Below are positions 12,737 to 54,553 of a DNA stretch of 64,000 bases, one piece after another. Made by a program: the position numbers and the translations under genes. The notes beneath the pieces are model-generated. The model had not been told where the DNA came from. It ran no database searches and saw only the letters and a list, made by a program, of their open reading frames with translations. This stretch comes from an uncultured Thermoplasmata archaeon (GTDB lineage: Archaea; Thermoplasmatota; Thermoplasmata; JAGHBH01). The DNA lies in the NCBI GenBank assembly GCA_964601625.1, contig CAZROC010000002.1, positions 80,694-144,693 on the forward strand, given 5' to 3'. The stretch's first letter is position 1. Every line of letters starts with the position of its first letter.

Positions 12737-12880
12737 CCCGTCGCCCGCAATTTCGGACAACGTCCAGCGGGTATCTGAAGCCATAAGCCGGTAGGCGAAG
12801 GGTTTAGGCGGAGCATAGCGAAGCCAGATACCCGCTTGTTGTCCGAGTGCGATAGCACCGAAGCGAGGCGGAGAGTTGCC
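12737..12880. repeat. attC-like cassette repeat (copy 2)
   Basis: CCGTCGCCCGCAATTTCGGACAACGTCCAGCGGGTATCTGAAG...GCCAGATACCCGCTTGTTGTCCGAGTGCGATAGCACCGAAGCGAGGCGGAGAGTTGC. Confidence 0.7.
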
Positions 12881-12889
12881 TGCTTGGTA

Positions 12890-13282
12890 TTATACGTGCC
12901 ATATACTTTTCTTATTTTTTCCGTCAAAACAAATTACATAGTTATCTAAAATGTTTTCTCGGCCTATTATGTTTATTCCTGTTCCTAGTCTGTCGGAAAA
13001 GCCTATTATTGCGTTGGTTTTTAGATGTTCAATAATCAACTCCAGTTTAAAGATGTACAGTGGGATTATTCCCCCGTCACCAACAGTGATGTCTTTTCTT
13101 TCTCCGGAATATATGTCTAAGCCCAGTTCTTCTGCAAAATCGGCATGGAAGACGGAATATGTGGCACCAGTATCAAGATAGGCTAGGGTTCTAACTGTCT
13201 TGTCTTGGTTTATTATTTGTACTTCAACTAATGGGCAGTAACGGCCTCTCCATGGGATATAAGGTATTTCTATCTTGTTCAT
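12890..13282 (-). CDS. retropepsin-like (clan AA) aspartic protease
   Basis: 130 aa. AYLDTGATYSVF (D-T/S-G-A active-site motif). Confidence 0.55.
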   Translation of the reverse strand: MNKIEIPYIPWRGRYCPLVEVQIINQDKTVRTLAYLDTGATYSVFHADFAEELGLDIYSGERKDITVGDGGIIPLYIFKLELIIEHLKTNAIIGFSDRLGTGINIIGRENILDNYVICFDGKNKKSIWHV

Positions 13283-13545
13283 ATTAAAAGAGCCTCCTCT
13301 CCCCTCCTTGGTATATATGCTATCAATGGGTCCTTGACTCCCATTTTTTTGACCTTCTCATACACTTCGTGTATTGTTTTTCCTATAGCAACGATTTTAT
13401 TTTTGTATAAGGCAACATATTTTCCTCCCTGTTCCTCTTCCAGTTTCTCTTTATTCGCTATCAGATAAAGCATCTCATCGCTGACCATTTTGACCACCTT
13501 TATTATTGCATATACTCCTCCATAGCTTATATGATTTACTATCAA
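13279..13545 (-). CDS. small protein partner of the retropepsin-like protease (hypothetical)
   Basis: 88 aa. Overlaps protease gene by 4 nt. Two-gene cassette reminiscent of TA-like pairs. Confidence 0.35.
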   Translation of the reverse strand: MIVNHISYGGVYAIIKVVKMVSDEMLYLIANKEKLEEEQGGKYVALYKNKIVAIGKTIHEVYEKVKKMGVKDPLIAYIPRRGEEALLI

Positions 13546-13559
13546 ATTACCGGGCAGGC

Positions 13560-13720
13560 AATTACGCCTAACGTCTTGCGAGGTATCTGAAGCCCTGAGC
13601 CGATAGGCGAAGGGTTTAGGCGAAGTGCCGGAGGCACGTAGCCAGATACCCGCTTGTTATATGACCCGAACGAAGTGGGGGCGAGGAGCGAAGCGGAGAG
13701 TTGCGGGTGAAAGTTTTCCT
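13560..13720. repeat. attC-like cassette repeat (copy 3)
   Basis: ACGCCTAACGTCTTGCGAGGTATCTGAAG...GCCAGATACCCGCTTGTTATATGACC...GGAGAGTTGCGGGTG. Confidence 0.7.
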
Positions 13721-14530
13721 TTAGAGGGAATTTGTAATGGCATATAAACATACTCCTTTAAGCCTACATATCTCGCATTGAGGCTTTTTAATGCATATCT
13801 TGTACCTATCTTCCGCACAATATGACCAAATGAAAATATCCACTATACCTGGAGATTCTCCTAAATCTATTTCTTTGAAACTACCATCTTTTTTCTTTAT
13901 TTTTATTTTAAATCCCTTTAGATGTTTCTCACAAAAACGTGTAAGAATATCTTGAAAATGAGCTTTTTCTAATGGGTCGCTTCTATCCTTACTGCTACAA
14001 CTATGATAGATTCCGCTTCGGAGTATAAATCTCATTTCATGTGTATCTATAGGGACTCTATCCCAATATCCAAAATCACGAAGATAGTTATCTCTTCCTT
14101 TTTCACCTAAAACCTTAGTTTTTCCTTCTTTTGCCAAATTGTAGAGGTTTTCCGTGAAATCTTGTATTGTGGGATATTCAAGAAGATGTTCTATGTTTTT
14201 CTTTCTTCGATTTCCCACTAACCCAATTAGTTTATTTTTCGCTCCAGATGTTCTGAAATTTTTCCCATGATCTCTAATGAAAGAATCCATTTTGCTGTCA
14301 AAATCTAAGGGTTTCTTCAAGCGCCATCCATTGGTTACTATTAATTCAACTATCATACGCAGCGCTTTTAGAGAGTTAGGGTTTCTCCCAAGTTCATCTT
14401 TGTTGTTTATAAAGAATTGAAGGTCGTCTTTAATCTCTTTTGAATGAGCATTTCTCAACATCCAATTAATAGTTTCTTTGAATTCTTTAGCGAATTTAGT
14501 TGTATTAAATTCCATTTTTATTACCTCCAC
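13721..14530 (-). CDS. HhH-GPD superfamily DNA glycosylase (endonuclease III-like) with C-terminal Cys cluster
   Basis: 269 aa. LGEKGRDNYLRDFGYWDRVPIDTHEMRFILRSG resembles the HhH-GPD motif (VDTHV.R). C-terminal CAEDRYKICIKKPQCEICRLKGVC. Confidence 0.5.
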   Translation of the reverse strand: MEVIKMEFNTTKFAKEFKETINWMLRNAHSKEIKDDLQFFINNKDELGRNPNSLKALRMIVELIVTNGWRLKKPLDFDSKMDSFIRDHGKNFRTSGAKNKLIGLVGNRRKKNIEHLLEYPTIQDFTENLYNLAKEGKTKVLGEKGRDNYLRDFGYWDRVPIDTHEMRFILRSGIYHSCSSKDRSDPLEKAHFQDILTRFCEKHLKGFKIKIKKKDGSFKEIDLGESPGIVDIFIWSYCAEDRYKICIKKPQCEICRLKGVCLYAITNSL

Positions 14531-14537
14531 TTATTCT

Positions 14538-14690
14538 TTCGCCCGCAATTTCTGACAACGTCCTGGGGATATGTGAAGTTTGCGGAGCGTGAGCGGAGCA
14601 AATTTGGGCGAGCGGTAGCGAGCCACATATCCTCCTGTTGTCCGAACCCGTAAGGGTCGAAGCGAGGCGGAGAGCTGCGGGCGACGGGGG
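14538..14690. repeat. attC-like cassette repeat (copy 4)
   Basis: CGCCCGCAATTTCTGACAACGTCCTGGGGATATGTGAAGTTTGCGGAGCGTGAGCGGAGCAAATTTGGGCGAGCGGTAGCGAGCCACATATCCTCCTGTTGTCCGAACCCGTAAGGGTCGAAGCGAGGCGGAGAGCTGCGGGCGACGG. Confidence 0.75.
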
Positions 14691-22975: not shown

Positions 22976-22992
22976 GCACTTTCACCTTTCTT

Positions 22993-30608: not shown

Positions 30609-30614
30609 TTTTAA

Positions 30615-34342: not shown

Positions 34343-34346
34343 ATAA

Positions 34347-35042
34347 TCACCCCTTTTTAATTATATGATAGTAATCAAATGTGCGTACATGGGCAAAATA
34401 AATACTTTTATTTATTTGGAAAATGTCTTCTTTGTCCCATATATTAATTGCCATATCTCCAAACCAATATTCATTTCTATCCTTTATATCCTCAGGAAGA
34501 ATAGCTGCCCAAAGAAGCTCATCGTTTGGCTCGCCATTCCATACACGCAATATTCTTTTCATAATCTTACTCCATTTTGTATTGGTATAATACACCCCAC
34601 AATTAACTTTAGCCCAATAATTGGGAATGTAAATAAATTTGGGAGTTCCGTAACTTCTACACCAATCCCAGAAAACTTTATCTGGCCATTTTAGTATTAA
34701 AACATCCCAGTCTACCCAGAGAACTTCTTTATACTTTTCTATTGCCCAAATTACCATATAATGCTTCATAAGATGTGCTTTGTTCTTTTTGATTTTTTGC
34801 GGTACCTCATCAAAAGCCTTTTCCACCCTCAAGCCCAAATTCTCTAATTTCTCCGCACTCTCACTATCACCAGCTAAAAAAGAAAATTCATTAAGATTTT
34901 CAATTCTGTTATATTTAAAGAAGTTGTACATCTCATTTACAACTTTCTTATATCTTTCTTCGTGAAACTTTCCGTCACGAACGTATTTGTACAACCCCAT
35001 AACCATTTTAGGATTTGCTTCCATGCATATATACCTCCTCAA
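34347..35042 (-). CDS. hypothetical protein (possible nucleotide-sugar transferase-like)
   Basis: 231 aa. VDWDV acidic motif. No firm call. Confidence 0.3.
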   Translation of the reverse strand: MRRYICMEANPKMVMGLYKYVRDGKFHEERYKKVVNEMYNFFKYNRIENLNEFSFLAGDSESAEKLENLGLRVEKAFDEVPQKIKKNKAHLMKHYMVIWAIEKYKEVLWVDWDVLILKWPDKVFWDWCRSYGTPKFIYIPNYWAKVNCGVYYTNTKWSKIMKRILRVWNGEPNDELLWAAILPEDIKDRNEYWFGDMAINIWDKEDIFQINKSIYFAHVRTFDYYHIIKKG

Positions 35043-36051
35043 CAGGTCTCCTCATATTGCATTTTTTACATATCTCACTTGAACCCCAGTTTTCAATCAA
35101 ATTGTTATATTTTTCACTATTCCAGAGTTCCATAAAGTCTTGTTCATTTACATTTCCAAAATATCCGAAAGATTTTCTCAATTTATCTGGTGCGCAGCAT
35201 ACGTTGAAAGTCCCATCCCATGATATCCAAGCTTCCCGCCCAAGAAACGGGCATATCCAGTCATCCGGGATGCTGCTGTCCACACTTTCAGAAAGTTTGT
35301 GAATATTGTCAAGCTTTATATCTGAACCGTATTCTTCTTTTAATTCATACAGAATGTCCACCATTTCGTTCCATCGTTTTATGCTATCCTTATTTCTCTT
35401 TAGTGACTCATTACTTAGTTCTGGCCATGTAACCCAAAGATGATGGCCTTTGAACCTATCCACTCCAAGCTCTATCGCCAGCTTCAGCAAAGATGGTAGC
35501 TCGTTAAGGTTTCGTTCCATAAAAGTAACCTGAAAAGTCACTGTGGGATTGTTCCTTCCTTCCCTTCTGATGTTATCCCTTATCTTTAAAAATTTTTTAA
35601 TGTTCTTCATATGCTCTTCAAAGTTCAGACCCACCATTATTGATTCGGCTGTTTTTTTGGTGACGCCGTTTATTGAGATCTTAACATCACTTGCCAATGG
35701 TAATATTAATTCACCCCACCTCTCTACGCCCAAACGAGGAAAAGTGCCGTTGGTAGTGAGATTTATTTTAATTCCAAACCTTTTAACAATTTCCAGTACG
35801 CTTTCAAAATATGGATATAGCAAGGGTTCACCCATAGTACTGGGAATGATCTCCTTCACATACGGCTTTGTTGATTTGAGCACACGCTCTATTACCTCAA
35901 CAGCCATAATTTTGTATCTTTTTATAATCTCGTCCCTCTTTCTATTGTATATGCTGTGAGTATCACACATAATGCATCTCAAGTTGCACAGCCCCGGATT
36001 TGTATCAAATGTTATCCTCCATGGGCCATCCAGTTTAGGTGGTAGTTTCAT
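35008..36051 (-). CDS. Radical SAM enzyme (possible SPASM/twitch C-terminal Cys)
   Basis: 347 aa. CNLRCIMC. C-terminal CCAPDK...CKKC. Confidence 0.6.
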   Translation of the reverse strand: MKLPPKLDGPWRITFDTNPGLCNLRCIMCDTHSIYNRKRDEIIKRYKIMAVEVIERVLKSTKPYVKEIIPSTMGEPLLYPYFESVLEIVKRFGIKINLTTNGTFPRLGVERWGELILPLASDVKISINGVTKKTAESIMVGLNFEEHMKNIKKFLKIRDNIRREGRNNPTVTFQVTFMERNLNELPSLLKLAIELGVDRFKGHHLWVTWPELSNESLKRNKDSIKRWNEMVDILYELKEEYGSDIKLDNIHKLSESVDSSIPDDWICPFLGREAWISWDGTFNVCCAPDKLRKSFGYFGNVNEQDFMELWNSEKYNNLIENWGSSEICKKCNMRRPVEEVYMHGSKS

Positions 36052-37252
36052 GCATCACCCTCCTGAACAGTTCTGTAAGTTTGGCAGCATCATCTTGAAT
36101 GTCTCTAACCTTCTCTCTGTTACCTCGAATTTTGTTCAACATCTCTGGATTTTTGATTACCTTTTCCAAAATCTTCTTCAAGGATTTTTCATCACCCACA
36201 TTGAAAAGAAAGCCATCCACTCCGTCATCAACCAGTTCCTTCATCCCTCCAATATTTGAGGTTATCACCGGTATCCCCTTCAGAAACGCTTCCTGGATAA
36301 CTAGGGGAGAATTTTCATACCATATTGATGGAACAACCAGAATGTCAATGTTATCCAGCACCCTATCTATTTCTTTATTATCAAATCCTCCCATGAAGTA
36401 TACATCCTCATCTCCCAGTTCACTGAGGTATATTCTGTACTTGCCAGCGTCTCCATATATTTTTAGAGAAGCCCCCCTCTTCTCTTCAATGGAAGAAAAA
36501 GCTCTTATCAAAATATGAACACCCTTGGGAGGAGTTATTCTCCCAACAAATCCGAATGTTATCTTGCTATCTCTTTCATATTTTTTCTTTCTGTACTTTA
36601 TCTTTGACTTATCAAATCCGTATGGGAAATAGAGTACTTTAGAAGATGGAACTTTCATATTGATGTAAAATGTCCTTATGAATCTCGACGGGGCAAGAAA
36701 AACATCTATATTTTTCAAAACCCTTTGCATGTGTTTTCTGTATTCTGAAATCTCATCTTTATTTGTATGGAGGTAACTTAGACATGTTAAGCACCGATCT
36801 ACTCCCGGCCCACTGCATATCCTGTATTCTTTTGTCAGTAGTTGACCCCTAACACAGAACATCCAGAAATCGTGAATGGTGAAAATAACTGGTTTTTCAT
36901 ACTCCTCTTTGGTGATATTCACAATGTTTGTTGACAGATGAGATAAATGATGTATATGTACGACATCTGGGTCTATATCTTCTATTATTTCCCTGTACAC
37001 ATCATCCATTCTTTCATCCATGTACTTATCCCTTAATGAATAATCCATTTTCGGTTTGTTGACCCTAATCACATTTATATCACCCATATTGGATCTTACG
37101 ATATCATACTCTTGGAGAAATGGATTTTCAATTCTTGAAAAAACATATACTTTATGATTCTTACTCAATTCAGAGGCCAGTGTGTATGCATATACTTCAG
37201 ACCCTGCCATATAGTATGGTGGAAATCCGTGAATCACCTCTAAAATCCTCAC
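36035..37252 (-). CDS. Glycosyltransferase family 4 (GT-B, GT1/GT4 clan)
   Basis: 405 aa. EAFLKGIPVITSNIGGMKELV motif. Confidence 0.7.
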   Translation of the reverse strand: MRILEVIHGFPPYYMAGSEVYAYTLASELSKNHKVYVFSRIENPFLQEYDIVRSNMGDINVIRVNKPKMDYSLRDKYMDERMDDVYREIIEDIDPDVVHIHHLSHLSTNIVNITKEEYEKPVIFTIHDFWMFCVRGQLLTKEYRICSGPGVDRCLTCLSYLHTNKDEISEYRKHMQRVLKNIDVFLAPSRFIRTFYINMKVPSSKVLYFPYGFDKSKIKYRKKKYERDSKITFGFVGRITPPKGVHILIRAFSSIEEKRGASLKIYGDAGKYRIYLSELGDEDVYFMGGFDNKEIDRVLDNIDILVVPSIWYENSPLVIQEAFLKGIPVITSNIGGMKELVDDGVDGFLFNVGDEKSLKKILEKVIKNPEMLNKIRGNREKVRDIQDDAAKLTELFRRVMHETTT

Positions 37253-38190
37253 CTGAACACCTCCAGAAATCTTTCAACTGTCATTTTTATGCCAGTATCA
37301 ATATCTATTCTTGCCTCAAAACCAAGCAACTCTTTTGCTTTAGAAGGGGCGCCATAAAATCTCTCCACGTCATAACTCCTGGGATCTGTGAATTTCACTT
37401 GCACATCAGTCCCCACATGTTTTGAGATTATCTCAGGGAGATGTATTATTTTTGTAGGTTTACCAGTGAGGATATGGAAATCTTCTAGCGCATCGTCATT
37501 TTTTTCCAAGAACTCCATAGAGGCAACAATACCGCGTACTGTATCATCTATGTATGTAAAATCAAATATCTGTTTGCCTCCCTGTATCACCAATGGCTCT
37601 CCTTTAATTGCCCTTATTACAAATTTTGGTATAAGTCTGTCTAGTATGTCCCTTTCATTTCCATATACATTTGAAAATCTCAGGATAATGGAATTTATTC
37701 CAAATCTTTTAGAGTACTGCTCAACCAGTTTTTCCCCTTCTAACTTCGTTTTTCCATATATGTTTATTGGCATTTTCTTTGAGTCTTCTTTCACAGGAAG
37801 TGTTTGCTGCTCCCCATACACTTCTCTACTGCTACCAAAGATAAACCAAGGTTTAGTGGGTAAGTTTGATATTGAACTCAGGATTGTTTCTGTTCCTCCT
37901 ACATTTGTGGATATGCTGAGATTTGGATATTTTTCACCCCAGACAACTCTGGATACAGCCGCCAGATGAATAACACCATCAAAGGAAATATCATTAAACA
38001 ATTTCCTCAAAAGCACTTCATCCCTTACATCTCCTTGGATGTAGTTCACTTCATCATAAAAATCCTTTAGATTTACAGGATTTTGTTTAATATCCAGTAT
38101 ATGCACTTCATATTTTCCGGTCTTCACAAGCTTCTCAGATAAATTGGACCCTATGAATCCTGCTCCTCCAGTAATCAAAATCCTTTTCAT
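37249..38190 (-). CDS. NAD-dependent epimerase/dehydratase (UDP-glucuronate decarboxylase / UDP-sugar epimerase-like)
   Basis: 313 aa. TGGAGFIGSNL. YGKTK (YxxxK). Confidence 0.75.
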   Translation of the reverse strand: MKRILITGGAGFIGSNLSEKLVKTGKYEVHILDIKQNPVNLKDFYDEVNYIQGDVRDEVLLRKLFNDISFDGVIHLAAVSRVVWGEKYPNLSISTNVGGTETILSSISNLPTKPWFIFGSSREVYGEQQTLPVKEDSKKMPINIYGKTKLEGEKLVEQYSKRFGINSIILRFSNVYGNERDILDRLIPKFVIRAIKGEPLVIQGGKQIFDFTYIDDTVRGIVASMEFLEKNDDALEDFHILTGKPTKIIHLPEIISKHVGTDVQVKFTDPRSYDVERFYGAPSKAKELLGFEARIDIDTGIKMTVERFLEVFR

Positions 38191-38927
38191 CCAACCACCC
38201 CTTCACGTGCATATTTCAAAAATTCAAAGAATCCCTCAACATTTCCACAGTCAAACCTGAAACCGTTTATTATCACCGCATAAATGTCCTCTGTCCTCAT
38301 CAATTTCTTCAATCCATCAGTCAGCTCTATTTCCCCTGTTCTTGGATTTCTACCTCCAATAGATCCGAATATACTGTCTGTGAGAAAATATCTTCCTACA
38401 ATAACCAGCCCATTCAGGATTTTTTCGCTCGGTTTTTCAATAAGATCCTTTACAAGAAAAATGCCATCTTTTATTTCCTCTCCCACAACAACACCATACC
38501 TTCTCATATGATCAGATCTGCTCACACCAATCACTGTGGAACCGAATTCATCATAAACTTCTTTCAGCTTTGACATAGGAGGCTTTTCGGAGACTATTAC
38601 ATCATCTGGTAAAACAACACCAAAAACATCATCTATCCACTCACTAACTAGGGTTATGGCATCACCGAGCCCCCTGGGCTCAGTCTGTATAAAGTATTTG
38701 TATTCAAAATTAGTGTAATTCTTGTTCAGATATTCTTTCAAAATCTCCTTTCTCGGATTTATAACAACACCTAACTTTTTCACGCCCCACACTGTGATTT
38801 CCTCCATAATATAATCTATTACCACCCTGTTGTTTACGATAGGCAACAGCTCTTTCGGGGCATTATCTGAGATTTTTTTCATTCTCTTCCCATCTCCAGC
38901 GGCGGGTATCACCACTTTATCTATCAC
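38187..38927 (-). CDS. Sugar-phosphate nucleotidyltransferase (UTP/dTTP-glucose-1-phosphate type)
   Basis: 246 aa. PAAGDGKRMK N-terminal nucleotide-binding motif. Confidence 0.6.
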   Translation of the reverse strand: MIDKVVIPAAGDGKRMKKISDNAPKELLPIVNNRVVIDYIMEEITVWGVKKLGVVINPRKEILKEYLNKNYTNFEYKYFIQTEPRGLGDAITLVSEWIDDVFGVVLPDDVIVSEKPPMSKLKEVYDEFGSTVIGVSRSDHMRRYGVVVGEEIKDGIFLVKDLIEKPSEKILNGLVIVGRYFLTDSIFGSIGGRNPRTGEIELTDGLKKLMRTEDIYAVIINGFRFDCGNVEGFFEFLKYAREGVVG

Positions 38928-39797
38928 TCCCTCACCCCGTATTTTTCCTTCATTTCATCATTTACCTTCTTCACAGCGCGATGTAATGGAACATTCCTGT
39001 ACTCTTCTGCAAACCTGATGAACGCGGTAAGGTCCTTTGGTAAGCACTTTCCGCCGAAGGCCTTACCGTGCACGGTTCCATACTTGCCTATGCGGGGATC
39101 AAGTGCTACGGCCTGTGCAACTATATTTGAGTCAATACCCAGTTCCTTGCACACCAAAAAAATTTCGTTCCAGTAAGATATCCTTGCCGCCAGAGCGTTG
39201 TTGGAGGCATATTTTATCATCTCCGCGGTTTTGTAATCAGTTCTTATCACCGGTACGGTTATATCGGAATAAAGTTCATCCAGTATTTCATCGCCCCATT
39301 TTTTATTATCTCCCTCTCCCATAACCAATCTATGCTCATTTTCTGGGGTTATGGAGTATCTATCATCATCAATCCATGTGCTATGGATCTCAGTTAGAAA
39401 CTCGGGACTGTAAATGATACCAATTCTGTTTGAATTTCTTAATTTTTTAAAAATAGGTATTACAACTTTTTCTGTTGTACCCGGAAGAATGGTAGATTTC
39501 AATATTACTATATGACCCCTTTTAGATTTTTCCAGAGTCTTTGCTAGGACACATGAAGCGTTTATTATATAATCCAATATCTGATTGCCTTGGTAATCTG
39601 TAGGAGTTGGTACAGCTATAAACAAATATCTACACTCAGAGAGTTCCTCGATTTCCACAGTGGCGTTGAATCCATTGTTTTTCATATCATCCACAACATT
39701 TGGATTTATATCATAGAATTTGACATCAAAACCCTTTTGATGAAGTATTTTCCGGTGGCTTTACCCACAAATCCTGCGCCTATTATTCCAATGCTCA
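38924..39797 (-). pseudogene. UDP-glucose/GDP-mannose 6-dehydrogenase, apparently frameshifted near its 5' end
   Basis: Rossmann start MSIGIIGAGFVGKATGKYF is encoded at 39797..39740 in a different frame from the main ORF 38924..39694 (..FIAVPTPTDY.., catalytic C in GGKCLPKD). A single frameshift near ~39730 would join them. Confidence 0.4.
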
Positions 39798-39829
39798 TAA
39801 GATACCACCTATCACTCTAATTCTATATT

Positions 39830-39965
39830 CGTCGCCCGCAATTTCGGACAACGTTCTGGGCATATCCGAAGTTCCGAGCGGAGCGAGGAATTTGGACGGA
39901 GCGTCAGCGAAGTCGGATATGCACCTGTTAGGCGACCCGAAGGGCAAGGCTGTGAGCGCAAAATT
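39830..39965. repeat. attC-like cassette repeat (copy 12)
   Basis: CGTCGCCCGCAATTTCGGACAACGTTCTGGGCATATCCGAAGTTCCGAGCGGAGCGAGGAATTTGGACGGAGCGTCAGCGAAGTCGGATATGCACCTGTTAGGCGACCC. Internal stem GCATATCCG/CGGATATGC. Confidence 0.7.
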
Positions 39966-41067
39966 ATATTTCAATACCAATGGGATATGCATCTATATGT
40001 CCCTCCTTCCAAAGTTTTGCTGGATCAGGAATCTTTTCTATTTTTGCATTTTTTGTTCCAGCACCATAAACCCTATAAATGTAAAATTTATCTCCTTTTT
40101 CTTTCATTAATCTCCATTGATCTTTTGACACTTGGAACCAAGCTTTTTCGTATTCCTTTGTGGATTTAACCTCGATAAAAATCTCATCTCCATATTCTGT
40201 AATTTTTATGTCATAGTGCTGTCCACTTTCTCCGTTTTTATTTAACCATATTACTTCTACAATTACACTACCATCTTTTTCTAATTTAAAGCCTTGCTCA
40301 GTATCCAATAAAGAGGTGTCGGGATACTTTTTTCTCATTTCATCTTTAATGCACCTAAGAGCATATTCTTCTCCCCATCGTCCAATATCTTCTTTGGCTT
40401 TTTTACTCAAGACTCCGGTAGATTGTGCCCAATCTCCATGTGGTCTGGTTGCGGACTTTTTATCTGAAAGTTTTACCTTCTTCTCTGTTGTTTCTTCTTT
40501 TACTTCTTTAGGAGCATATTCTTCTACATTGATGGGAACATCTTTTGGAGAAAATTCTGGAGTCCATTCTTTTTCTTTTGTTTCATCTAAAATATCTTCA
40601 TCGGTTGAGATAACTGTTTCTCCTGCCAATCCTGACAAATCTTGAGTTGAGGTTTCTGCTGGTATTTGGGTGATTTTTTCAATCTCTGCTTTCTCTTCTG
40701 CGGAGTAAACTTCTTTCGATTCACTCTCTAACAATTGCTTTTCTTTCTCTGCTTTTTCTACTGTTTCTATTTCTTTAATTTTAGAGACCCTTTTTAAAAT
40801 TCTTTCTTCGGATTTGGGCAAGGCCTCTATATTTTTAACACTCATTATATTCTCTGCATTGGGGCTATTACTCATTATATTCATTATAAAATCATCAAGA
40901 CCCTTGATTTCACCAAATACTTTAGAGAACTCCACTGCGAGGTCGTATATGCTACCATCACTCTTCATATATATACAATTCTTGTCCTTATGGAAAATAC
41001 ATGTTTTTTCAGCTTCTTTGTTTATTTCTCTCCATTCATTGACCTTTATTGAATATCTTACTCCCAA
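39964..41067 (-). CDS. PD-(D/E)xK-like (DUF3883-like) C-terminal domain protein
   Basis: 367 aa. C-terminal D...EVK (DIKITEYGDEIFIEVKST) restriction-endonuclease-fold motif. Glu/Lys-rich middle. Confidence 0.4.
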   Translation of the reverse strand: MGVRYSIKVNEWREINKEAEKTCIFHKDKNCIYMKSDGSIYDLAVEFSKVFGEIKGLDDFIMNIMSNSPNAENIMSVKNIEALPKSEERILKRVSKIKEIETVEKAEKEKQLLESESKEVYSAEEKAEIEKITQIPAETSTQDLSGLAGETVISTDEDILDETKEKEWTPEFSPKDVPINVEEYAPKEVKEETTEKKVKLSDKKSATRPHGDWAQSTGVLSKKAKEDIGRWGEEYALRCIKDEMRKKYPDTSLLDTEQGFKLEKDGSVIVEVIWLNKNGESGQHYDIKITEYGDEIFIEVKSTKEYEKAWFQVSKDQWRLMKEKGDKFYIYRVYGAGTKNAKIEKIPDPAKLWKEGHIDAYPIGIEI

Positions 41068-44000
41068 ATTGTCAGTAACATAAACTTTAATTTCTCCAGT
41101 TTTTCAAGCACACTCTTCTCCTTGAGTTTTTCATATTCTTCATTTTCCTCCCAGTAAAGGTATCGTAAAACATACGGTATGATATCTTGAATGAGTTTGG
41201 TACGTTTATCATCTTTTGAGAATGTTGTCTTTTCTACCAAAGGCTCAATCTCCACATTTTCAGATAAATAATGGAGGTCACAAGCTTTAATGAAGAATTT
41301 TATTTTATCTGGATGATAGCCATCCGGTAGCCAGAGAAAACCGATATTTTCCTCATCTTTGAATAATTCATAAAGCTCATTATTATCGTTTATGAAAATA
41401 TCTCCACCGTTAGACCAGAAATCACCTTTATTAATAAGAAAAATCGATTTTTTGATAAAATCATTCCACCAATCTTCCTTAGATATAGGATTTTCAATTT
41501 TATCTGGATCTGGATTCAAGTTACGGTTTAGTTCTTCGTATATTCTTATGATTATCTTCTTATCCTCATCAGATATGTGACTTTTCTCGGATATAGAATA
41601 CAAAACATCCGCATAGTCTTTCGGCGTGGGTTTTTCACTTATACCAATCTTTTCCACAAAGAATCTTCTGAATTTCGAATAATATTTCTCAAGATATATT
41701 CTATTTTTACCAAAAATATTGCTAACATCTTTCCATATAACTTCCCCGCCACTGTAGTAATTTTTATCTGTATCAGGAATAAAAATCAAAGAATTTTGCT
41801 TAAATGCTTCTTTGATTTTAGTGGCATCCTCCCAAAAATGTTCATCTAAGAATCTATATAACTTTTCAAATTTCTCTTTATCTTTACTTTCTTGCTTAAC
41901 AAGGACTTTTAGGTAATTTAAAACGCCCTCTACGCTGGCTTGCGTATTGATGCCCAGAGTTCTAATAAAATCTTCATTTTCAATTTTTACCGCTAAGTAT
42001 GGAACAGTGTCGCCTAAAACTTCGCGGATTTCTGGTTTATCCAAAAATACCTCTGACGGTTTTGCTAAAGTATTTTGAGTTGTTGGGAGCCATGAAGTAC
42101 TTTTAAGTAAATGGACCCATGTAGAATCTGTATGAGCAGAATACCAGGCATAATATTGCCATTTATAAGTTAAATCTTTATATTTTGATATTTCAGACCA
42201 TTGTTTTTGTAGCAACCTTAAGAGGTGGATCATCTTTGATTTTTCACCACGGTTAAGTATTCTATCTAGAAACTCAATAGTATAATCTTCAATTTCTTGA
42301 CTTGTATAATCCCAAGAGGGATTATAACGAGAGCTGTAGTAAGTATTACTTCTTCTTAATTTTTCTTTCTTATCTGCTGATAAATAGCTTCCATCACATC
42401 TAATTACTCGCAATCCTGAATCCACTCCCATTTTCAAGAAAAAGTCTCTCCATTCTCTAATCTTTTTCTCTTTTTCTTCTTTTAGGTCTATAATCTTCTT
42501 TTCTATTTTCTTTACTTCTTTTCTATGTTTCTTTTTCCACTTCTTACTTTTCCCCTGTATTTTGTTTTTTAACTCCAAAATTTCATTATCAATTCGTTTT
42601 AACTCTTGTTCAAGATAACAGAAATGCGCGAAACTTACATCTATACCTTCAAATAACGTCTCTAAATCATTTTCGTTTCCATAACTCCTTGGCAAATATA
42701 CATTCTCTGGATAGTTATACTGTTTTTCTCCTTCATCATCTTTATTAATACGAATACGAAGCGATTTTTTAAGACGTTTTAATGGATCTTCTTTAGTTTC
42801 CCAAGATGCTTTATTGGCATTTAACCTTCTATCGCTTTCTCTTTCGTATTTGTCTGTATTATCTTTGATATACATAACATATCCGATAAGAGTCCTTGAA
42901 TCTTTTTGTTTCCAATCTTCACTTTCATAAACGGGCAAAATATGATCTTCAATGATTTCGTAAGGGTGTGCTTGTTTAAGTCCTAATCTCTGGAGGAATT
43001 CTGAAATTATTTTATCTCTCTCTTCTTTCTTCCGCTTTGAAATAGTATCTATAATATCCCTTTTAATTATTCTGAGCTCATCTTCAAAGCCATATACTGC
43101 TTTTCTCTCCAGCGGGAAGAATACAGCACCTTTATTTATAGATGTCAGTTCTCCATTTTCCAATTTTATAATCTCTAAACTCCTAAGTCGTTCTAAGTGC
43201 TCATCAGATAGCTTTTTCTTGCTAAGATAGTTAAATAGCTTTGCAAACCATTCTTCATTCTTGTTTTCGATCCATTCCTTGTTCTCCAGACACTTAATTA
43301 GGTCATCAATTGAAAAATCATTAACTCCCAGTTTTTGAAGAACTTGCCTTTTAGCCTTTATCTTATCCGATAGATATTCTTTTCCAAAAAATTTCTGGAG
43401 ATCTTCGTTGGTTACTATTTCTTTTATTTCATCATCACCAATTAAAACCTCTGAAGGTCTCTTCCACTTATTTGTTTTTGTCAAAATACATGCTTCCTCC
43501 TTAAGTCTCTCATATATTTGTTCTACTACTGGTAAAAAGAAATCGTCTTTTATTTCTTCTTTGAGAGGAAGATAATTGTAAAAGTTGTATTTTAAATTTT
43601 CATCATTTTTGAATTCTCTAACAGCATCTAGAAATACTCCAATAATGGAATCCCTCAGCCACATGTTCCATCTATTATCATCTTTCTTTATATCCTCTCG
43701 GTCCCCTGTTAAAAGAAAATCTGCTTGGATGATAAACTTAAACCCATATTTATTAATTGGAAGAAAAGCGAAAACAAATTGCTCTTCCGATGTTTTCGAA
43801 TTGCCGCTATTTTCAAGAGGAAATGCTAAAATTATTTCAGTAGTATCAACATCAACCTCTTTCATCATTTGATTTTTGAGATAAACTTTCAACTCAGTGG
43901 GTATTGTCATTTGTTTCTTAACAACTCTCCATCTTTGTTCATTACTGTTATGTAATACCCAAATTTCATTTCTCTTCTTTTCTTTTTTAAAGTACATACT

Positions 44001-44660
44001 TTCATTAGTCACTTTATTTTCAACTTTTATTATTTTAATATTCTTAAGAAATAGTAGCAAAGGAGGGGACATTTGATTTACCTGACCTAAAACTTCTTTT
44101 ACCTTCTTTTCCTCTTCAGCGAAAGGCAATATAATATTTGTGTATTCTCGCTTAATAAATTCTGGAGGACTATCAACCCAAAGAGGTCTAATCAAAGTAA
44201 GAGGCTCCTCTTTTTCATAATGAAACTTAAAACTAAATCCATTTGAATAAATATATGGATCATTAGTGATAGAAAAGACAGATTTAAATCCAACCCCGAA
44301 CTCACCGATAAAACCAACTTTTCTCTTAGTAGAACCAAAAAATTGGCATAGTTTTTCAACATTTTCCTTTCTAAATCCCATTTCATTATTTAGTATCCAC
44401 AAACAATAAGGATAACCTTTTTCTCCGTAATTGATTATATAAATCTCCAAAGAAGGATCTGAAACATCGTAATTATTATCATCAGCGTTTTGTATTAGTT
44501 CTATAATAAATCTAGGTCTGGTATTAAGGCGATCTAAAATTCTTTTTACACCTTTATAATCCACTGGAGTATATCCACCTCTATTTTTCTTTTCTATCTC
44601 CTCAGAGACCCGTTTTTGAATATTTTCAATAATTTCTTTTGGATTTGACTTATGCTTCAT
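41058..44660 (-). CDS. Very large protein with N-terminal GHKL (sacsin/Hsp90-like HATPase_c) domain
   Basis: 1200 aa. IIELIQNADDN motif. Overlaps the downstream PD-(D/E)xK gene by 10 nt. Confidence 0.5.
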   Translation of the reverse strand: MKHKSNPKEIIENIQKRVSEEIEKKNRGGYTPVDYKGVKRILDRLNTRPRFIIELIQNADDNNYDVSDPSLEIYIINYGEKGYPYCLWILNNEMGFRKENVEKLCQFFGSTKRKVGFIGEFGVGFKSVFSITNDPYIYSNGFSFKFHYEKEEPLTLIRPLWVDSPPEFIKREYTNIILPFAEEEKKVKEVLGQVNQMSPPLLLFLKNIKIIKVENKVTNESMYFKKEKKRNEIWVLHNSNEQRWRVVKKQMTIPTELKVYLKNQMMKEVDVDTTEIILAFPLENSGNSKTSEEQFVFAFLPINKYGFKFIIQADFLLTGDREDIKKDDNRWNMWLRDSIIGVFLDAVREFKNDENLKYNFYNYLPLKEEIKDDFFLPVVEQIYERLKEEACILTKTNKWKRPSEVLIGDDEIKEIVTNEDLQKFFGKEYLSDKIKAKRQVLQKLGVNDFSIDDLIKCLENKEWIENKNEEWFAKLFNYLSKKKLSDEHLERLRSLEIIKLENGELTSINKGAVFFPLERKAVYGFEDELRIIKRDIIDTISKRKKEERDKIISEFLQRLGLKQAHPYEIIEDHILPVYESEDWKQKDSRTLIGYVMYIKDNTDKYERESDRRLNANKASWETKEDPLKRLKKSLRIRINKDDEGEKQYNYPENVYLPRSYGNENDLETLFEGIDVSFAHFCYLEQELKRIDNEILELKNKIQGKSKKWKKKHRKEVKKIEKKIIDLKEEKEKKIREWRDFFLKMGVDSGLRVIRCDGSYLSADKKEKLRRSNTYYSSRYNPSWDYTSQEIEDYTIEFLDRILNRGEKSKMIHLLRLLQKQWSEISKYKDLTYKWQYYAWYSAHTDSTWVHLLKSTSWLPTTQNTLAKPSEVFLDKPEIREVLGDTVPYLAVKIENEDFIRTLGINTQASVEGVLNYLKVLVKQESKDKEKFEKLYRFLDEHFWEDATKIKEAFKQNSLIFIPDTDKNYYSGGEVIWKDVSNIFGKNRIYLEKYYSKFRRFFVEKIGISEKPTPKDYADVLYSISEKSHISDEDKKIIIRIYEELNRNLNPDPDKIENPISKEDWWNDFIKKSIFLINKGDFWSNGGDIFINDNNELYELFKDEENIGFLWLPDGYHPDKIKFFIKACDLHYLSENVEIEPLVEKTTFSKDDKRTKLIQDIIPYVLRYLYWEENEEYEKLKEKSVLEKLEKLKFMLLTIWE

Positions 44661-44687
44661 ATTCTATATCACCAATCCCAATTATAT

Positions 44688-44865
44688 CGCTCACAGCCTT
44701 GCGTTGCCGAAGGCAATGTCGCCTAACGTTTTGCGGGTATGCGAAGTTGCCCGATAGGGCAATTTGGGTGAGCAACGAAGGTGCGAACCGCATACCCGCC
44801 TGTTATATTCCCCGAGCGTAGCGAGGGCGAGGAGCGTTAGCGACGAGAGTTGCGGGCGAAAGGTA
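44688..44865. repeat. attC-like cassette repeat (copy 13)
   Basis: GCGTTGCCGAAGGCAATGTCGCCTAACGTTTTGCGGGTATGCGAAGTTGCCCGATAGGGCAATTTGGGTGAGC...CCGCATACCCGCCTGTTATATTCC...GAGAGTTGCGGGCGAAAGG. Internal stem GGGTATGCG/CGCATACCC. Confidence 0.7.
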
Positions 44866-44883
44866 CGTTTAAAGATGAGTATA

Positions 44884-45816
44884 CTATTTGGTTTCATAGT
44901 TTAAACCCCACAAATGTTTTTTAAATTTATTTATATTATCGATATTAAGACTTTTAGCTATAAAACGATCAAAGCCCAAACTGAAACCTCCATGGTTGGT
45001 AGGATTTTCTTCTAAGACTTTTAAATAAAACATATAGTCTCTTGGATTGACGCCAAACTCTTCCATTTTTTCAATAATAATTTTTATATTAGTTTCCCTT
45101 ATGCCACCTGAAGATATCTCCCAGCCTTTAAATATCAGGTCAAAAGCATGCTTATATTTATTATCATCATCGTATGATTTTATATAGAATTTCTTTACAG
45201 ATTTAGGATATTTTTTTATAAAAAACATGTCTCCCACAGTATTTTTCAACAAATTTGCTAGTTTTTTTTCACGATCCGGACCAATGTCTTCACCCCATTT
45301 AATATTTATACCATTATCATTTAGAAGAGATATAGCATCGTCGTATAGTATTACAGGTATTGGATATTTTACATCTCCTATTTTTAAATGATATTTTTTA
45401 AATATGCGGTCGGACACACATTTTATCATGTTGCCCAAAAAAGTCATCAGTTGATCTTCGGTCGAAATACCAGCCATTTCTACATCTATTGTCCAGAATT
45501 CATCATTATGTCTTTCAGTTTTTTCTACATTATCTCTCCATGTAGGGCATATTTCATAAACTCTCTGCAAACCATAGCATACAGCCATTTGTTTAAACAT
45601 TTGAGGAGATTGCGCTAATAACCCACGTTTCTGCCCATTAGTCGAAAACACTATAAATATCTCCTTTTTCGTCCCCCGTATAGGGTCTGTAGCGACAGGC
45701 ACAAGTTTTGGTGTAAGTATTTCTACAAAATCTTTACTTCTGAGATAAGACCGAAAGAAAAATAAAACATCATCCATATATTTTAATATCTCCTTTTTAT
45801 TATTGATTCTCATCAT
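44884..45816 (-). CDS. Class II aaRS catalytic-core-only paralog (AsnA-like / AspRS-like, no anticodon-binding domain)
   Basis: 310 aa. FVEILTPKL, QSPQMFKQ...RVYEICPTWRDNVEKTERHNDEFWTIDVEM (motif 2), HGGFSLGFDRF (motif 3). Confidence 0.6.
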   Translation of the reverse strand: MMRINNKKEILKYMDDVLFFFRSYLRSKDFVEILTPKLVPVATDPIRGTKKEIFIVFSTNGQKRGLLAQSPQMFKQMAVCYGLQRVYEICPTWRDNVEKTERHNDEFWTIDVEMAGISTEDQLMTFLGNMIKCVSDRIFKKYHLKIGDVKYPIPVILYDDAISLLNDNGINIKWGEDIGPDREKKLANLLKNTVGDMFFIKKYPKSVKKFYIKSYDDDNKYKHAFDLIFKGWEISSGGIRETNIKIIIEKMEEFGVNPRDYMFYLKVLEENPTNHGGFSLGFDRFIAKSLNIDNINKFKKHLWGLNYETK

Positions 45817-45819
45817 ATA

Positions 45820-47658
45820 CTATTTACCTCCCAATTGGTGACCTTCATTATTATCTATACATAGATGCAGCTCTTTAAGCTGATCTTTTGAAACAGTAGA
45901 AGGAGTATCGTCCATCAGGCACCTTCCATCCTTATTTTTAGGAAATGCTATTACTTCTCTTATGGAGTCAACTCCTGCCATAATAGCAACAAGTCTATCT
46001 AAACCTAACGCAATTCCACCATGAACTGGTGCACCGTAATCCAGCAATTCTAACAATGATCCAAACTTAGTCATATATTCTTGGGGTGATAGCCCAATCA
46101 ATTTGAAGATTTTTTCTTGGAGTTTTCTATCATGGATTCTTATTGACCCTCCACCAACTTCCCAACCGTTAAGCACAAGATCATAAGCTTTAGATCTAAT
46201 CTCAGAAGGATCCTTCAAATCGTTTAATGAATCAATCTTCATTAATATCTCTATATGTTCATCTTTAGGAGATGTGAAAGGGTGATGAACACAAACCCAG
46301 CGTTCTTCTGTGTTGGAATACTCAAACATCGGAAAATCAACTACCCACAAAAACTGATACTCTTGTTTATCCAGTAACCCATAGTCTCTAGCGATCTTTA
46401 ATCTAATTTCTCCGAGTGTTTCTGAGACCTCTTTACCTCTTCCTGCCATAAGTATTAATAAATCTCCATCACTTAATTGGGTCCTCTCTATTATACGATT
46501 TATTTCCAATGTAGATAGATGTTTAGATATTTGTGATTTTAATTTATTGTCAATGAATTTAAACACAAAAACCCCCTTGTCTCCTTTACTTCTAACAAAA
46601 TTTGAGATTTTATCAATATACTTACGACTAATTTTATCTGCTAATTTTGGTATTTTTATACATTTAATAACACCATTATTATTAAGAACTTCTCTAAATA
46701 TAGTAACAGATGTATTTTTGAAAATGTCAGATAAATCTACAATTTTAGATTTAAAGCGTAAATCTGGTTTATCTGTGCCGAATTTATTAATAACATCATC
46801 ATATGAGTATATAGGGAAAGGTGTTTTTATTTTAATATCAAGTGTTTCTCTAAAAATATACTTCAAAAGGTCTTCGATAGTTCTAAAAATATCTATGGGC
46901 TCTACCCATGACATTTCAATATCTATTTGTGTGAATTCTGGCTGTCTGTCTGCTCTTAAGTCCTCATCTCGTAGGCATTTTGCAATTTGATAATACTTGT
47001 CAAATCCTGCTATCATCAATTTTTGTTTATATTGTTGGGGAGATTGAGGCAAGGCATAAAATTTTCCAGTGTGAAGACGGGATGGAACCAAAAAGTCCCT
47101 AGCGCCTTCAGGAGTTGGTTTTGCGAGAATTGGCGTTTCAATATACACGAATCCTTTTTCAAATAGATAGTGCATGGTATAATTAATCACCTTACTTCTC
47201 AAAATGATTCTATTTTGCATGTCCTTTCTCCTTAAATAAATGGGTCTCCACCGTAGTTTAGATTCATCATATATCTTCGCATTATCCTCAACTGGAATGG
47301 GTAAAGGTTTTGCTTTATTGTATATAAAGCACTCTTTCACTATGACCTCAATATCTCCCGTTTTTATATGTGGGTTTTTTAAATTTTCCGGTCGTTCTTT
47401 GACAACACCTTTTATTCCGATTGTACTATGAATATTTAAATGTCTTAAAACTTCAAATTGGTCTTCTTTTATCATGCTTCTATTGAAAACAAGCTGCACT
47501 TCCCCGTATCTATCAAATAGGTTCACAAATATCATACCACCATGCCATCGAAGACTTTTAATCCACCCAGATAGGACAACTTCTTTTCCCACATCTTTCA
47601 ATGTCAATTCTCCACACGTATGAGTCCTATATTTTTTTACCTTTTTCATGATTATCAC
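45820..47658 (-). CDS. aspS: Aspartyl-tRNA synthetase, bacterial-type length (with insertion domain)
   Basis: 612 aa. N-terminal OB fold, FVYIETPILAKPTPEGARDFLVPSR, QSPQQYKQ, FRDEDLRADRQPEFTQIDIEMSW, GAPVHGGIALGLDRLV. Confidence 0.8.
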   Translation of the reverse strand: MIIMKKVKKYRTHTCGELTLKDVGKEVVLSGWIKSLRWHGGMIFVNLFDRYGEVQLVFNRSMIKEDQFEVLRHLNIHSTIGIKGVVKERPENLKNPHIKTGDIEVIVKECFIYNKAKPLPIPVEDNAKIYDESKLRWRPIYLRRKDMQNRIILRSKVINYTMHYLFEKGFVYIETPILAKPTPEGARDFLVPSRLHTGKFYALPQSPQQYKQKLMIAGFDKYYQIAKCLRDEDLRADRQPEFTQIDIEMSWVEPIDIFRTIEDLLKYIFRETLDIKIKTPFPIYSYDDVINKFGTDKPDLRFKSKIVDLSDIFKNTSVTIFREVLNNNGVIKCIKIPKLADKISRKYIDKISNFVRSKGDKGVFVFKFIDNKLKSQISKHLSTLEINRIIERTQLSDGDLLILMAGRGKEVSETLGEIRLKIARDYGLLDKQEYQFLWVVDFPMFEYSNTEERWVCVHHPFTSPKDEHIEILMKIDSLNDLKDPSEIRSKAYDLVLNGWEVGGGSIRIHDRKLQEKIFKLIGLSPQEYMTKFGSLLELLDYGAPVHGGIALGLDRLVAIMAGVDSIREVIAFPKNKDGRCLMDDTPSTVSKDQLKELHLCIDNNEGHQLGGK

Positions 47659-47667
47659 CTCAATTTT

Positions 47668-49689: not shown

Positions 49690-49690
49690 C

Positions 49691-50860: not shown

Positions 50861-50887
50861 CCCAAATTGTTATTGTTTTAGTATGCC

Positions 50888-51045: not shown

Positions 51046-51058
51046 AAACTGGCATTAA

Positions 51059-52506: not shown

Positions 52507-53631
52507 TTATTTCGCATATTCATACCTCTCTATGTTGTGTTGATTTTGGGTCTCGGGATTGTTGTTATCACCGGCTGTCTCTCCTGTTTCGTTTGCCGTG
52601 GCAGTTATCGTATCCAGCGGGCTTTTTATTCTGGTGAGTGTGCGGGTTGTTACGTGGGTGTAGATTTCGGTGGTTTTGGTGCTTTTGTGGCCGAGGAGTT
52701 TTTGTATGTATCTTATGTCTATTCCGTTTTCAAGGAGGTGGGTGGCGAAGCTGTGTCTGAGGGAGTGGACTGTTGCTGGTTTTTGTATGCCTGCTTTTTT
52801 GAGGGCTGTTTTGAATATGGCCTGTGCTGTTCTGGCTGAGATGTGTCTGGTTGGGTTGGCTCCGGGGAAGAGCCATTTTTGGGGGTTGTAAGTTTGCTGG
52901 TATTCTTTCAGTGTTTTGATAGCGGTTTCGGCGAGTATGGTGTATCTGTCTTTTCTTCCTTTTCCGCCTTTTATGTGTATGACTTTCTGGTCTGTGTCTA
53001 TGTCTTCGTTTTTCAGGGATACCGCTTCGCTGACCCTGAGTCCCGAGGAGTATATCAGCATAAGCAGGGTTTTGTGTTTGAGGTTTGTTGTGGCTGACAG
53101 GAGCTTTTGTATTTCGGCTGGTGAGAGTACGACGGGTAGTTTTCGCTCTTTTCTGGGCCGTTTGATGTCGTATGTAAATTTTCTGTTGAGCATCTGGCCG
53201 TAGTAGAATTTGATGGCGCTTATGGCGGTGTTTATTGTTGTGGCCGATACTCCTTTTTCTGCGAGGTCTGAGAGGTAGTTTTTTATGTCTGTGGCGTTTA
53301 TCTGGTTGGGGTTTTTTGATGTGTGTTTGAGGAGTTGTTTGTTGTAGCGCATGTAGGCGGCGGCTGTTCTCGGGCTATATTTTCTGGCTGCGAGTTCTTC
53401 TTTCAATGGGTGGAGCCAGATGTCTGGGTTTGCTTTGATTTTTTCTCCTTTGAAGAGTTTGAGGAACGTGGATATTTGCTGGCTTGGGACTGTCCAGTGT
53501 TTTTTGTGTGGATGCCATCTGTGGCCGGGTATGGTCTTTATTTTTTCTATGTACTCCGGGTTATATGGAAACCTGACGATAATCTCCTCCCCTCCGCCTG
53601 TCCCTGTCTTTACGGTTATCTCCCCTCTCAT
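52507..53631 (-). CDS. Tyrosine recombinase / integrase (candidate integron-type integrase)
   Basis: Start chosen at ATG 53631 (MRGEITVKTG...). C-terminal catalytic domain with R (GLRVSE), H-x-x-R (HSLRHSFATH) and Y (TTEIYTHV). Track ORF extends upstream to 54741 as low-complexity read-through. Confidence 0.7.
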   Translation of the reverse strand: MRGEITVKTGTGGGEEIIVRFPYNPEYIEKIKTIPGHRWHPHKKHWTVPSQQISTFLKLFKGEKIKANPDIWLHPLKEELAARKYSPRTAAAYMRYNKQLLKHTSKNPNQINATDIKNYLSDLAEKGVSATTINTAISAIKFYYGQMLNRKFTYDIKRPRKERKLPVVLSPAEIQKLLSATTNLKHKTLLMLIYSSGLRVSEAVSLKNEDIDTDQKVIHIKGGKGRKDRYTILAETAIKTLKEYQQTYNPQKWLFPGANPTRHISARTAQAIFKTALKKAGIQKPATVHSLRHSFATHLLENGIDIRYIQKLLGHKSTKTTEIYTHVTTRTLTRIKSPLDTITATANETGETAGDNNNPETQNQHNIERYEYAK

Positions 53632-54531: not shown

Positions 54532-54553
54532 CCGGGCGGTTTTTGGGATGTGT

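Follow-up and report, generated by a model that had tools for sequence, protein, structure and literature searches.

The 64,000-nucleotide (nt) window analysed here, a stretch of contig CAZROC010000002.1 assigned to an uncultured Thermoplasmata archaeon, carries on its minus strand two open reading frames (ORFs) that are very probably the two parts of a single gene, tmtA, of the Tiamat defence system. ORF1 (41058–44660) starts with ATG and encodes 1200 amino acids (aa), and ORF2 (39964–41067), the listed 3′ ORF, starts with TTG and encodes 367 aa; the two overlap by 10 nt. ORF1 contains the sequence IIELIQNADDN at residues 52–62, matches the Pfam family SACS (sacsin) at residues 38–140 (E = 4e-12) and scores 63.6 bits with the NCBIfam model P_loop_sacsin (cut-off 50), and ORF2 matches Pfam NOV_C (formerly DUF3883) at residues 266–343 (E = 4e-18, 65.7 bits, cut-off 22.1). 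These matches, together with the invariant columns and the Foldseek comparisons described below, delimit a GHKL (Bergerat-fold) ATPase and transducer-like region at approximately residues 36–330 of ORF1 (43671..44555, minus strand) and a NOV_C/DUF3883 nuclease domain of the PD-(D/E)xK type at residues 222–367 of ORF2 (39967..40404, minus strand). The G+C content of the region is 32–33%, and it lies within a low-GC stretch of approximately 46 kb (about 6–52.4 kb of the window) whose flanks have approximately 52% G+C. A first-pass annotation of this DNA had read the two ORFs as a pair of separate proteins, a giant sacsin-like ATPase and a partner with a restriction-endonuclease fold, carried in one cassette and of a kind associated with defence islands.

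Comparison with the PADLOC models of Tiamat (PDLC03964–03972, attributed to Millman et al. 2022) gave a different picture of the number of genes. The TmtA profile PDLC03972 was matched colinearly by the two products, ORF1 covering its positions 5–895 (E = 9e-191) and ORF2 its positions 1031–1302 (E = 3e-46), and the frame of ORF2 remains open 5′ of its TTG, up to a stop just before KTGEIKVYVTDNLGVRY. The search for homologues used the frame-repaired TmtA sequence as query, and among the 120 best homologues inspected more than 100 were single chains, mostly of 1450–1610 aa, which carry both SACS and NOV_C and cover 97–100% of the query. The 90%-identity cluster of ORF1 includes an intact protein of 1565 aa from ENA (P0122), whose residues 39–1557 match positions 32–1638 of the 1655 of another TmtA model, PDLC03966, in one stretch (E = 7e-150), and whose junction reads ...VLEKTGEIKVYVTDNLGVRY... 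(also given as VLEKTGEIKVYV). P0122 is encoded at 10001–14698 of locus L001, an ENA sequence from an independent megahit assembly, which matches the window in gene order and, over 24,698 bp with one gap, is 99.927% identical to it. This sole gap is a single A: CTTGAAAAAACTGG in L001 corresponds to CTTGAAAAACTGG in the window, and the base-by-base comparison placed the shortened run (A6 in the intact allele, A5 in the window) at 41100–41104 on the minus strand. The authentic part of the 5′ fragment comprises residues 1–1188 of ORF1, the end of which reads ...VLEKLEKLKFMLLTIWE*, and the last 12 residues (the LEKLKFMLLTIWE tail) are out of frame. The 3′ part, delimited from the ORF2 frame and the structural model, continues in the −1 frame (39964..41099, minus strand) and encodes, in this order, a beta-meander, a helical linker, a disordered linker rich in acidic residues and lysine, and the nuclease domain.

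Because the TmtA matches are colinear, the homologues are fused and the L001 allele is intact, we concluded, with a probability of roughly 85%, that the ORF pair is one tmtA gene of the single-gene Tiamat system, split by a 1-nt deletion, and that it is the only gene in an integron cassette of 4875 bp. The window tmtA is thus a disrupted member of a known system and not a new system; as an allele it departs from the single-gene organization (1200 + 367 aa), to which the sister allele encoding P0122 in L001 conforms. The two paired proteins of the first-pass annotation turned out to be halves of one polypeptide, and of its expectation that the genes would be linked in homologous loci the linkage itself was borne out, in the form of a fusion (in the >100 homologues and in the 99.9%-identical L001) and not of separate genes. 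The case has a corrective value, as an apparently new combination of ATPase and nuclease proved to be Tiamat broken by a frameshift, which scans for ORF pairs would mis-file.

The cassette holding tmtA (44726..39852, minus strand) is the third in the array of an integron. The repeats flanking it, at 44721–44808 and 39846–39933, are attC recombination sites, both on the minus strand. A covariance model of attC, built from 14 sites of the window, detected 17 attC sites, all on the minus strand between 8054 and 50997, and none inside the tmtA cassette or its two large neighbours, which confirmed that both ORFs are located in one cassette. In the stems of the 14 sites 96% of the cells were paired and 10 of the 15 pairs showed compensatory changes, a level reached by none of 500 shuffles. 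The upstream site belongs to the preceding cassette, which carries aminoacyl-tRNA synthetase (aaRS)-like and Fe-alcohol dehydrogenase genes (84.1 bits with the model, E = 2e-21; DNA fold of −21.2 kcal/mol, z −4.1), and its R′ box GTTAGGC (44727–44721) holds the crossover at which the tmtA cassette starts. The attC of the tmtA cassette itself (82.9 bits, E = 5e-21) consists of the boxes R″ GCCTAAC, L″ AGGTGCATATCCGA, L′ TCGGATATGCCCAG and R′ GTTGTCC. The cassette accordingly begins with the TT that follows the crossover G of the upstream R′ (G|TTAGGC) and ends with the crossover G in the R′ of its own attC (G|TTGTCC); the former R′ conforms to GTTRRRY and the latter departs from it in the RRR part. 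The cassette starts with TTAGGCGAC, which can pair with GTCGCCTAA in the R″ region of the attC at its 3′ end, and a match of this kind, 9–11 nt long, was found in 12 of 14 cassettes, as expected for a unit that excises as a circle.

The complementarity in the tmtA cassette reaches further than these boxes. Its leader (44661..44726, minus strand; 66 nt) contains a 23-nt motif, ATTGCCTTCGGCAACGCAAGGCT (44695–44717), which occurs once only in the window, an AT-rich TATA-like box and the sequence GGTGAT 8 nt before the ATG, features that may act as promoter and ribosome-binding site. As the third cassette, tmtA lies more than 7 kb from the putative attI and probably relies on this promoter-like leader of its own. 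The leader is also the 5′ arm, and the trailer (39934..39963, minus strand; CGCTCACAGCCTTGC ... GTCGCC) the 3′ arm, of an extended outer stem of the attC of the cassette. The two arms come to pair when the cassette is circular, and in the reconstituted site of 176 nt the 15-bp outer stem surrounds the R and L stems; the folding energy of this site is −47.8 kcal/mol (z −7.8). To our knowledge, the complementarity of a canonical attC ends at the R boxes. Trailers pair with the leader of the same cassette elsewhere in the array as well: besides 39934–39975 with 44675–44726, 30559–30617 pairs with 39822–39851, and GTCGCCCGCAA pairs with TTGCGGGCGAC in many cassettes, for example. The site on an excised circle would measure approximately 160–180 nt and include side hairpins and an additional outer stem. 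A Logan contig of 3.2 kb that carries the neighbour gene of tmtA ends at the tmtA leader.

The fold assignments of the first-pass annotation, a GHKL domain at the N-terminus and a restriction-endonuclease fold with a D...EVK signature, were supported by structural models. The AlphaFold model of ORF1, built with an alignment of 70 sequences, had a mean pLDDT of 85, and its N-terminal region matched Hsp90, MORC2, sacsin SR1, SMCHD1, MutL, ParE and Topo VI-B in Foldseek (probability 1.0, E down to 8e-9). The alignment has invariant columns at E54, N58 and D61 of motif I and at G116, G119, G122 and G124 of the ATP lid. The model of ORF2 was confident over residues 222–367 (pLDDT > 90), and this part matched archaeal Hjc resolvases, RecU, I-Ssp6803I, MGME1 and the SPARDA nuclease with a probability of up to 0.97 and an E-value of 0.015, a weak match yet consistent in kind. 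In its D286...E299-V-K301 motif the predicted catalytic residues D286, E299 and K301 are invariant in 70 homologues. By sequence and models, intact TmtA, a protein of approximately 1565 aa, has a sacsin-type GHKL ATPase at its N-terminus and a NOV_C/DUF3883 nuclease of PD-(D/E)xK type at its C-terminus, separated by a long middle part made of helices. The modelled Bergerat ATP-binding fold with a transducer-like domain appears to be shared with MutL, MORC, SMCHD1, Hsp90 and the SR1 region of human sacsin; the QNADD variant of motif I is also that of sacsin, the coupling of a GHKL head to a C-terminal endonuclease resembles MutL, and the NOV_C domain is named after the plant protein NO VEIN. 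TmtA differs from these proteins in that it has no sequence similarity to solved structures detectable by phmmer (a search of the PDB sequences with the intact protein matched none), in that its nuclease is a PD-(D/E)xK domain and not the metal site of MutL, and in that its function would be defence instead of repair, chromatin organization or chaperoning, so that the comparison bears on how it may work and not on its membership. By analogy with MutL, MORC and Hsp90, the GHKL head would bind and hydrolyse ATP and dimerise or clamp. The helical middle part could serve as a sensor or scaffold, and the head might gate the C-terminal PD-(D/E)xK domain, which, once licensed, would cut invading or cellular DNA.

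In such a protein the deletion strikes at residue 1189, which is the start of the predicted beta-meander (strands at residues 2–10, 13–20, 23–26 and 31–34 of the ORF2 model), and about 10 residues (TGEIKVYVTDN, a beta-strand) are correctly encoded by neither ORF. Inspection of the sequence before the TTG of ORF2 and before its first internal ATG revealed no Shine–Dalgarno-like sequence. The window allele is therefore probably off or crippled, the predicted ATPase/sensor part being uncoupled from the nuclease. Homologues broken elsewhere were also found, namely in Archaeoglobales (L003), with an in-frame stop between the core and the nuclease, in Hormoscilla (L028), split over frames 1 and 2, and in Argonema (L029), where the gene passes from frame 1 to frame 3; disruptions at such differing positions are a pattern typical of decay.

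The frameshift was also traced in other records. ORF1 is identical to the NCBI protein P0121, encoded on a 158-kb contig, and the JGI protein P0001, encoded on a 108-kb contig, shares the truncated tail but differs at 8 residues; therefore the frameshift is present on at least two haplotypes or assemblies. The window and L001 differ by 17 mismatches and the 1-nt indel, all inside tmtA, the remaining ~20 kb being identical. As tmtA accounts for 19% of the alignment, 18 differences arising independently would all fall within it with a probability of approximately 1e-13 by our own arithmetic. The mismatches form three patches (43329–43510, 41833–41958 and 41114–41129), the last of which consists of substitutions at 41114, 41115 and 41129, all within 35 nt of the deletion. 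Five of the changes in tmtA are synonymous, and the flanks show none. P0001 is L001-like in patches 1 and 2 and window-like in patch 3, with the frameshift present, which is consistent with a recombinant or intermediate haplotype. From this distribution we infer that plain relaxation after inactivation does not account for differences restricted to tmtA, and that patchwise recombination with a diverged allele, or a long-standing or balanced polymorphism at tmtA, fits better. An intact “on” allele appears to coexist with the window allele in the same population, and the two, 18 positions apart, make a natural pair for probing the function of Tiamat. Exact-pattern scanning of JGI metagenome contigs for the A5 and A6 alleles gave no match. 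A diversity-generating retroelement was considered as the source of the single-nucleotide polymorphism (SNP) patches and rejected, as no template repeat corresponding to the patches turned up in the window and the substitutions are mixed and not adenine-specific; profile scans of the cassette proteins revealed no reverse transcriptase among those scanned.

Several points weigh against a single gene inactivated by a frameshift, or against the mechanism proposed for its product. A recurrent homopolymer error could in principle have produced the A5 allele, which was seen in assemblies; two haplotypes retain the frameshifted allele, as they also might if the split were tolerated or functional, the loss of function being deduced from the sequence; the 10-nt overlap makes translational coupling of the ORFs conceivable; and slippage of tRNA-Lys by −1 on GAA_AAA_C would give back the exact wild-type protein, so traces of full-length product may be formed. 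In addition, the match of the nuclease fold is weak by its E-value and consistent in the kinds of proteins matched, and the ATP-gated nuclease is an analogy, no structure or biochemistry of Tiamat having been found.

Three other explanations were considered. According to the first, the organism has an intact gene and the A was lost through a sequencing or assembly error, as a 1-nt length change in an A run and the intact version in the independent megahit assembly would suggest. We consider this unlikely: the frameshift is common to two database proteins that differ from each other, P0121 and P0001, three substitutions at a distance of 35 nt or less are not the product of a homopolymer error, and 24.7 kb were aligned without any other indel. 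Runs of five or six A are, moreover, not error-prone on short-read platforms. The frameshift is thus probably a real allele.

If the allele is real, the two ORFs could be a genuine two-gene system, in which the GHKL ATPase and the NOV_C nuclease act as separate subunits. The overlap of the ORFs and the presence of the split in two haplotypes are compatible with this, and the Archaeoglobales homologue is likewise interrupted between core and nuclease, by its in-frame stop. However, a sister locus of 99.9% identity has the fused gene of 1565 aa, one homopolymer base apart, and more than 100 homologues are single chains. The break lies inside the predicted beta-meander and not in a linker, at the cost of about 10 residues missing from both products, the start of ORF2 would be a TTG or an internal ATG that no Shine–Dalgarno-like sequence precedes, and the breaks in L003, L028 and L029 are at positions that differ from one another, as decay predicts. 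Two cooperating subunits are therefore very improbable. Least probable of all, and set aside, is a programmed −1 ribosomal frameshift or a phase-variable switch by slippage at, or a change in length of, the A run: the −1 slip on GAA_AAA_C does yield the exact wild-type sequence and on and off alleles do coexist, but the site has neither a canonical X_XXY_YYZ heptamer nor a stable RNA structure downstream (−7.4 kcal/mol, z +0.27), the junction is encoded in one frame in homologues, and neither efficient transcriptional slippage nor slipped-strand mispairing at a high rate is to be expected of runs as short as A5/A6.

Homologues of tmtA were also found beside similar attC sites in other organisms. 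When 80 tmtA loci from species-representative genomes were searched with the attC model trained on the window, matches adjoining tmtA were obtained in four of them; as the model is biased to the window type, the absence of a match near the other homologues does not place them outside integrons. In a Leptospiraceae locus (L006) an attC lies directly 3′ of tmtA (5157–5237), with further sites at 6522 and 9145, in Caldiserica (L004) the site is at 10744–10822, in Ca. Alkanophaga (L045) it is directly upstream of tmtA (5840–5922), and the match in Bacteroidales (L007) is weak. The Caldiserica, Leptospiraceae and Ca. Alkanophaga loci have in common with the window the exact 23-nt leader motif, ATTGCCTTCGGCAAYGCAARGCT, just 5′ of tmtA, and their TmtA proteins are only 42–49% identical to that of the window. 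The Leptospiraceae locus also shares the extended architecture of the attC, its outer stem bearing compensatory changes, so a similar cassette, including leader and attC, occurs in bacteria. A scan of viral contigs for the leader motif gave no match. Upstream of the Caldiserica tmtA (5880–5965) there is a truncated attC, in which the loop motif CCCAAATTGCCTTCGG is fused directly to the leader motif ATTGCCTTCGGCAA; it looks like the result of a deletion between two similar TTGCCTTCGG hairpins.

Because the leader motif and outer stem were kept while the proteins drifted to 42–49% identity, the tmtA cassette may be an old family that moves between Archaea and Bacteria. We put this forward tentatively, at not quite even odds, together with two further suggestions of the same standing: that the window locus is an early documented defence island in an archaeal integron, with giant cassettes of 4.9 to 9.4 kb, and that the polymorphism of tmtA (the frameshift plus 17 SNPs that fall into three patches, with three haplotypes) reflects recombination in patches and the coexistence of on and off alleles of a defence gene that carries a cost. 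The context outweighs the gene itself: a large defence gene could travel as one integron cassette within a defence-rich archaeal chromosomal integron, which would extend the idea of integrons as defence biobanks to Archaea and provide a concrete candidate for cross-domain transfer of immune genes.

Tiamat has been described as a single-gene PD-(D/E)xK system of unknown mechanism (bioRxiv 10.1101/2024.10.26.620412; PMC12926258), its mechanism is still listed as unknown in reviews up to 2026 (PMC12926258), and of 382 complete archaeal genomes, 20 were reported to carry it (PMC13321033). The first-pass annotation had called the domain pair poorly characterised; this holds for the mechanism and not for the family, which has a name (Tiamat, TmtA) and models in PADLOC. 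The window gene resembles described Tiamat in its full-length colinear profile match, in the architecture of GHKL and DUF3883/NOV_C domains and in the single polypeptide of its intact allele, and it is found among defence genes. It differs in being frameshifted into two ORFs and in being an integron cassette in an archaeon, where the anti-virus role of the clade is presumed from sequence. The association with defence proposed in the first-pass annotation is supported. Defence cassettes are established in bacterial integrons, as BRiCs and in sedentary chromosomal integrons (bioRxiv 10.1101/2024.07.02.601719; PMC12614218; PMC10661359). The tmtA locus is similar to these in that a defence gene forms a separate cassette between attC sites, within an array that has gathered several defence systems, and differs from them in its archaeal host, in an attC whose outer stem is extended by the leader and trailer of the cassette, and in the 4.9 kb devoted to a protein of 1565 aa. 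Typical integron cassettes are approximately 0.5–1 kb long.

In the survey of archaeal integrons by Ghaly et al. (2022) only six IntIs and at most 12 attC sites on one contig were reported, attI was located immediately downstream of intI, and evidence was given for the sharing of cassettes between Archaea and Bacteria (PMC9668308); the words “defense” and “defence” are absent from the main text of that paper. The integron of the window agrees with those described there in its array of bacterial-type hairpin attC sites with R″, L″, L′ and R′ boxes, and its IntI-like tyrosine recombinase gene with a putative attI directly downstream would fit the layout described there; the window integron differs in being an apparently complete integron with 17 attC sites between archaeal housekeeping genes on one contig. 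An incomplete search of the literature turned up no account of Tiamat carried as a cassette, nor of archaeal integrons with defence cassettes.

This chromosomal integron occupies positions 8054–53631 of the window and comprises the candidate integrase gene intI, a putative attI and the 17 attC sites. The integron-type tyrosine recombinase gene intI (52507..53631, minus strand) encodes approximately 374 aa from a Met codon at 53631 and matches Pfam Phage_integrase and SAM_4. It scored 239 bits with the NCBIfam model recomb_XerA_Arch, “tyrosine recombinase/integron integrase” (cut-off 220), and 229.7 bits with the integron integrase model TIGR02249, under the cut-off of 265. It is transcribed toward the array, and the crossover of the putative attI, G|TTGTGCG, is at 52416; its GTTGTGC matches the R″ box GCACAAC of the first attC. 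The reading frame of intI is open over 744 codons (52507–54741), antisense through Thi4. In the ENA record (L001, 919–2157) three small ORFs on the opposite strand are annotated in place of intI, and the gene is probably unannotated in the public records of the organism. The array is flanked on the same contig by archaeal housekeeping genes, a UbiA-family gene and those of FEN1 and phosphoglycerate kinase (PGK) on the left and those of Thi4 and a Pelota/eRF1-like protein on the right, and its junction on the intI side is also present in the ENA assembly. The best named relatives of the PGK are from Ca. Thermoplasmatota (59% identity) and Thermoplasmata (53%), and the host of the array is, judging from these genes, probably an archaeon of the Thermoplasmatota.

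Several other cassettes encode defence-type genes, and the array therefore behaves like a defence island. The first cassette carries a nuclease of the PLD family (NgoFVII-like; 50910–52415). A cassette at 14559–18475 encodes a RecD-like helicase of 1235 aa which matches PADLOC PDC-S68 (E = 0), and a type II N6/N4 methyltransferase gene with an adjacent unannotated ORF of 415 aa lies at 18476–20651. At 22827–28122 lies a trio consisting of a DpdA-like/DUF6884 gene, HerA and a 615-aa protein without assignment, and a radical S-adenosylmethionine (SAM) protein is also listed among the defence-type cassettes.

The two large neighbours of tmtA are giant cassettes with matched ends. The one at 30482–39851 (9370 bp) contains polysaccharide and modification genes encoding a nucleoside triphosphate (NTP) transferase, an epimerase, a GT4 glycosyltransferase, a radical SAM/SPASM protein, a methyltransferase, a phosphatase and a kinase-like protein. 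The UDP-glucose/GDP-mannose dehydrogenase gene heading this cassette is decayed (38924–39799), identically in L001: an ORF of 30 aa retains the GxGxxG N-terminus (approximately 39707–39799), an ORF of 256 aa resumes from position 60 of the Pfam N-domain, and there is no C-terminal domain. The other giant cassette (44727–50909, 6183 bp) encodes, at 44884–50860, an Fe-alcohol dehydrogenase and three paralogues resembling class-II aspartyl-tRNA synthetase, one of full length (612 aa), one of 310 aa reduced to the catalytic core and one of 673 aa in which the N-domain of glutamyl-tRNA reductase and Shikimate_DH are fused to an aaRS core. By its gene content this cassette looks like an aminoacyl-tRNA-dependent or amino-acid-activating biosynthetic module. 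Finally, two adjacent cassettes (14558..13572 and 13571..12761) stand apart from all others in that their starts do not match the R″ of their own attC; the outer pair of ends at 12761–14558 would match if the middle attC (13566–13662) had been inserted later or had arisen by an attC × attC exchange.

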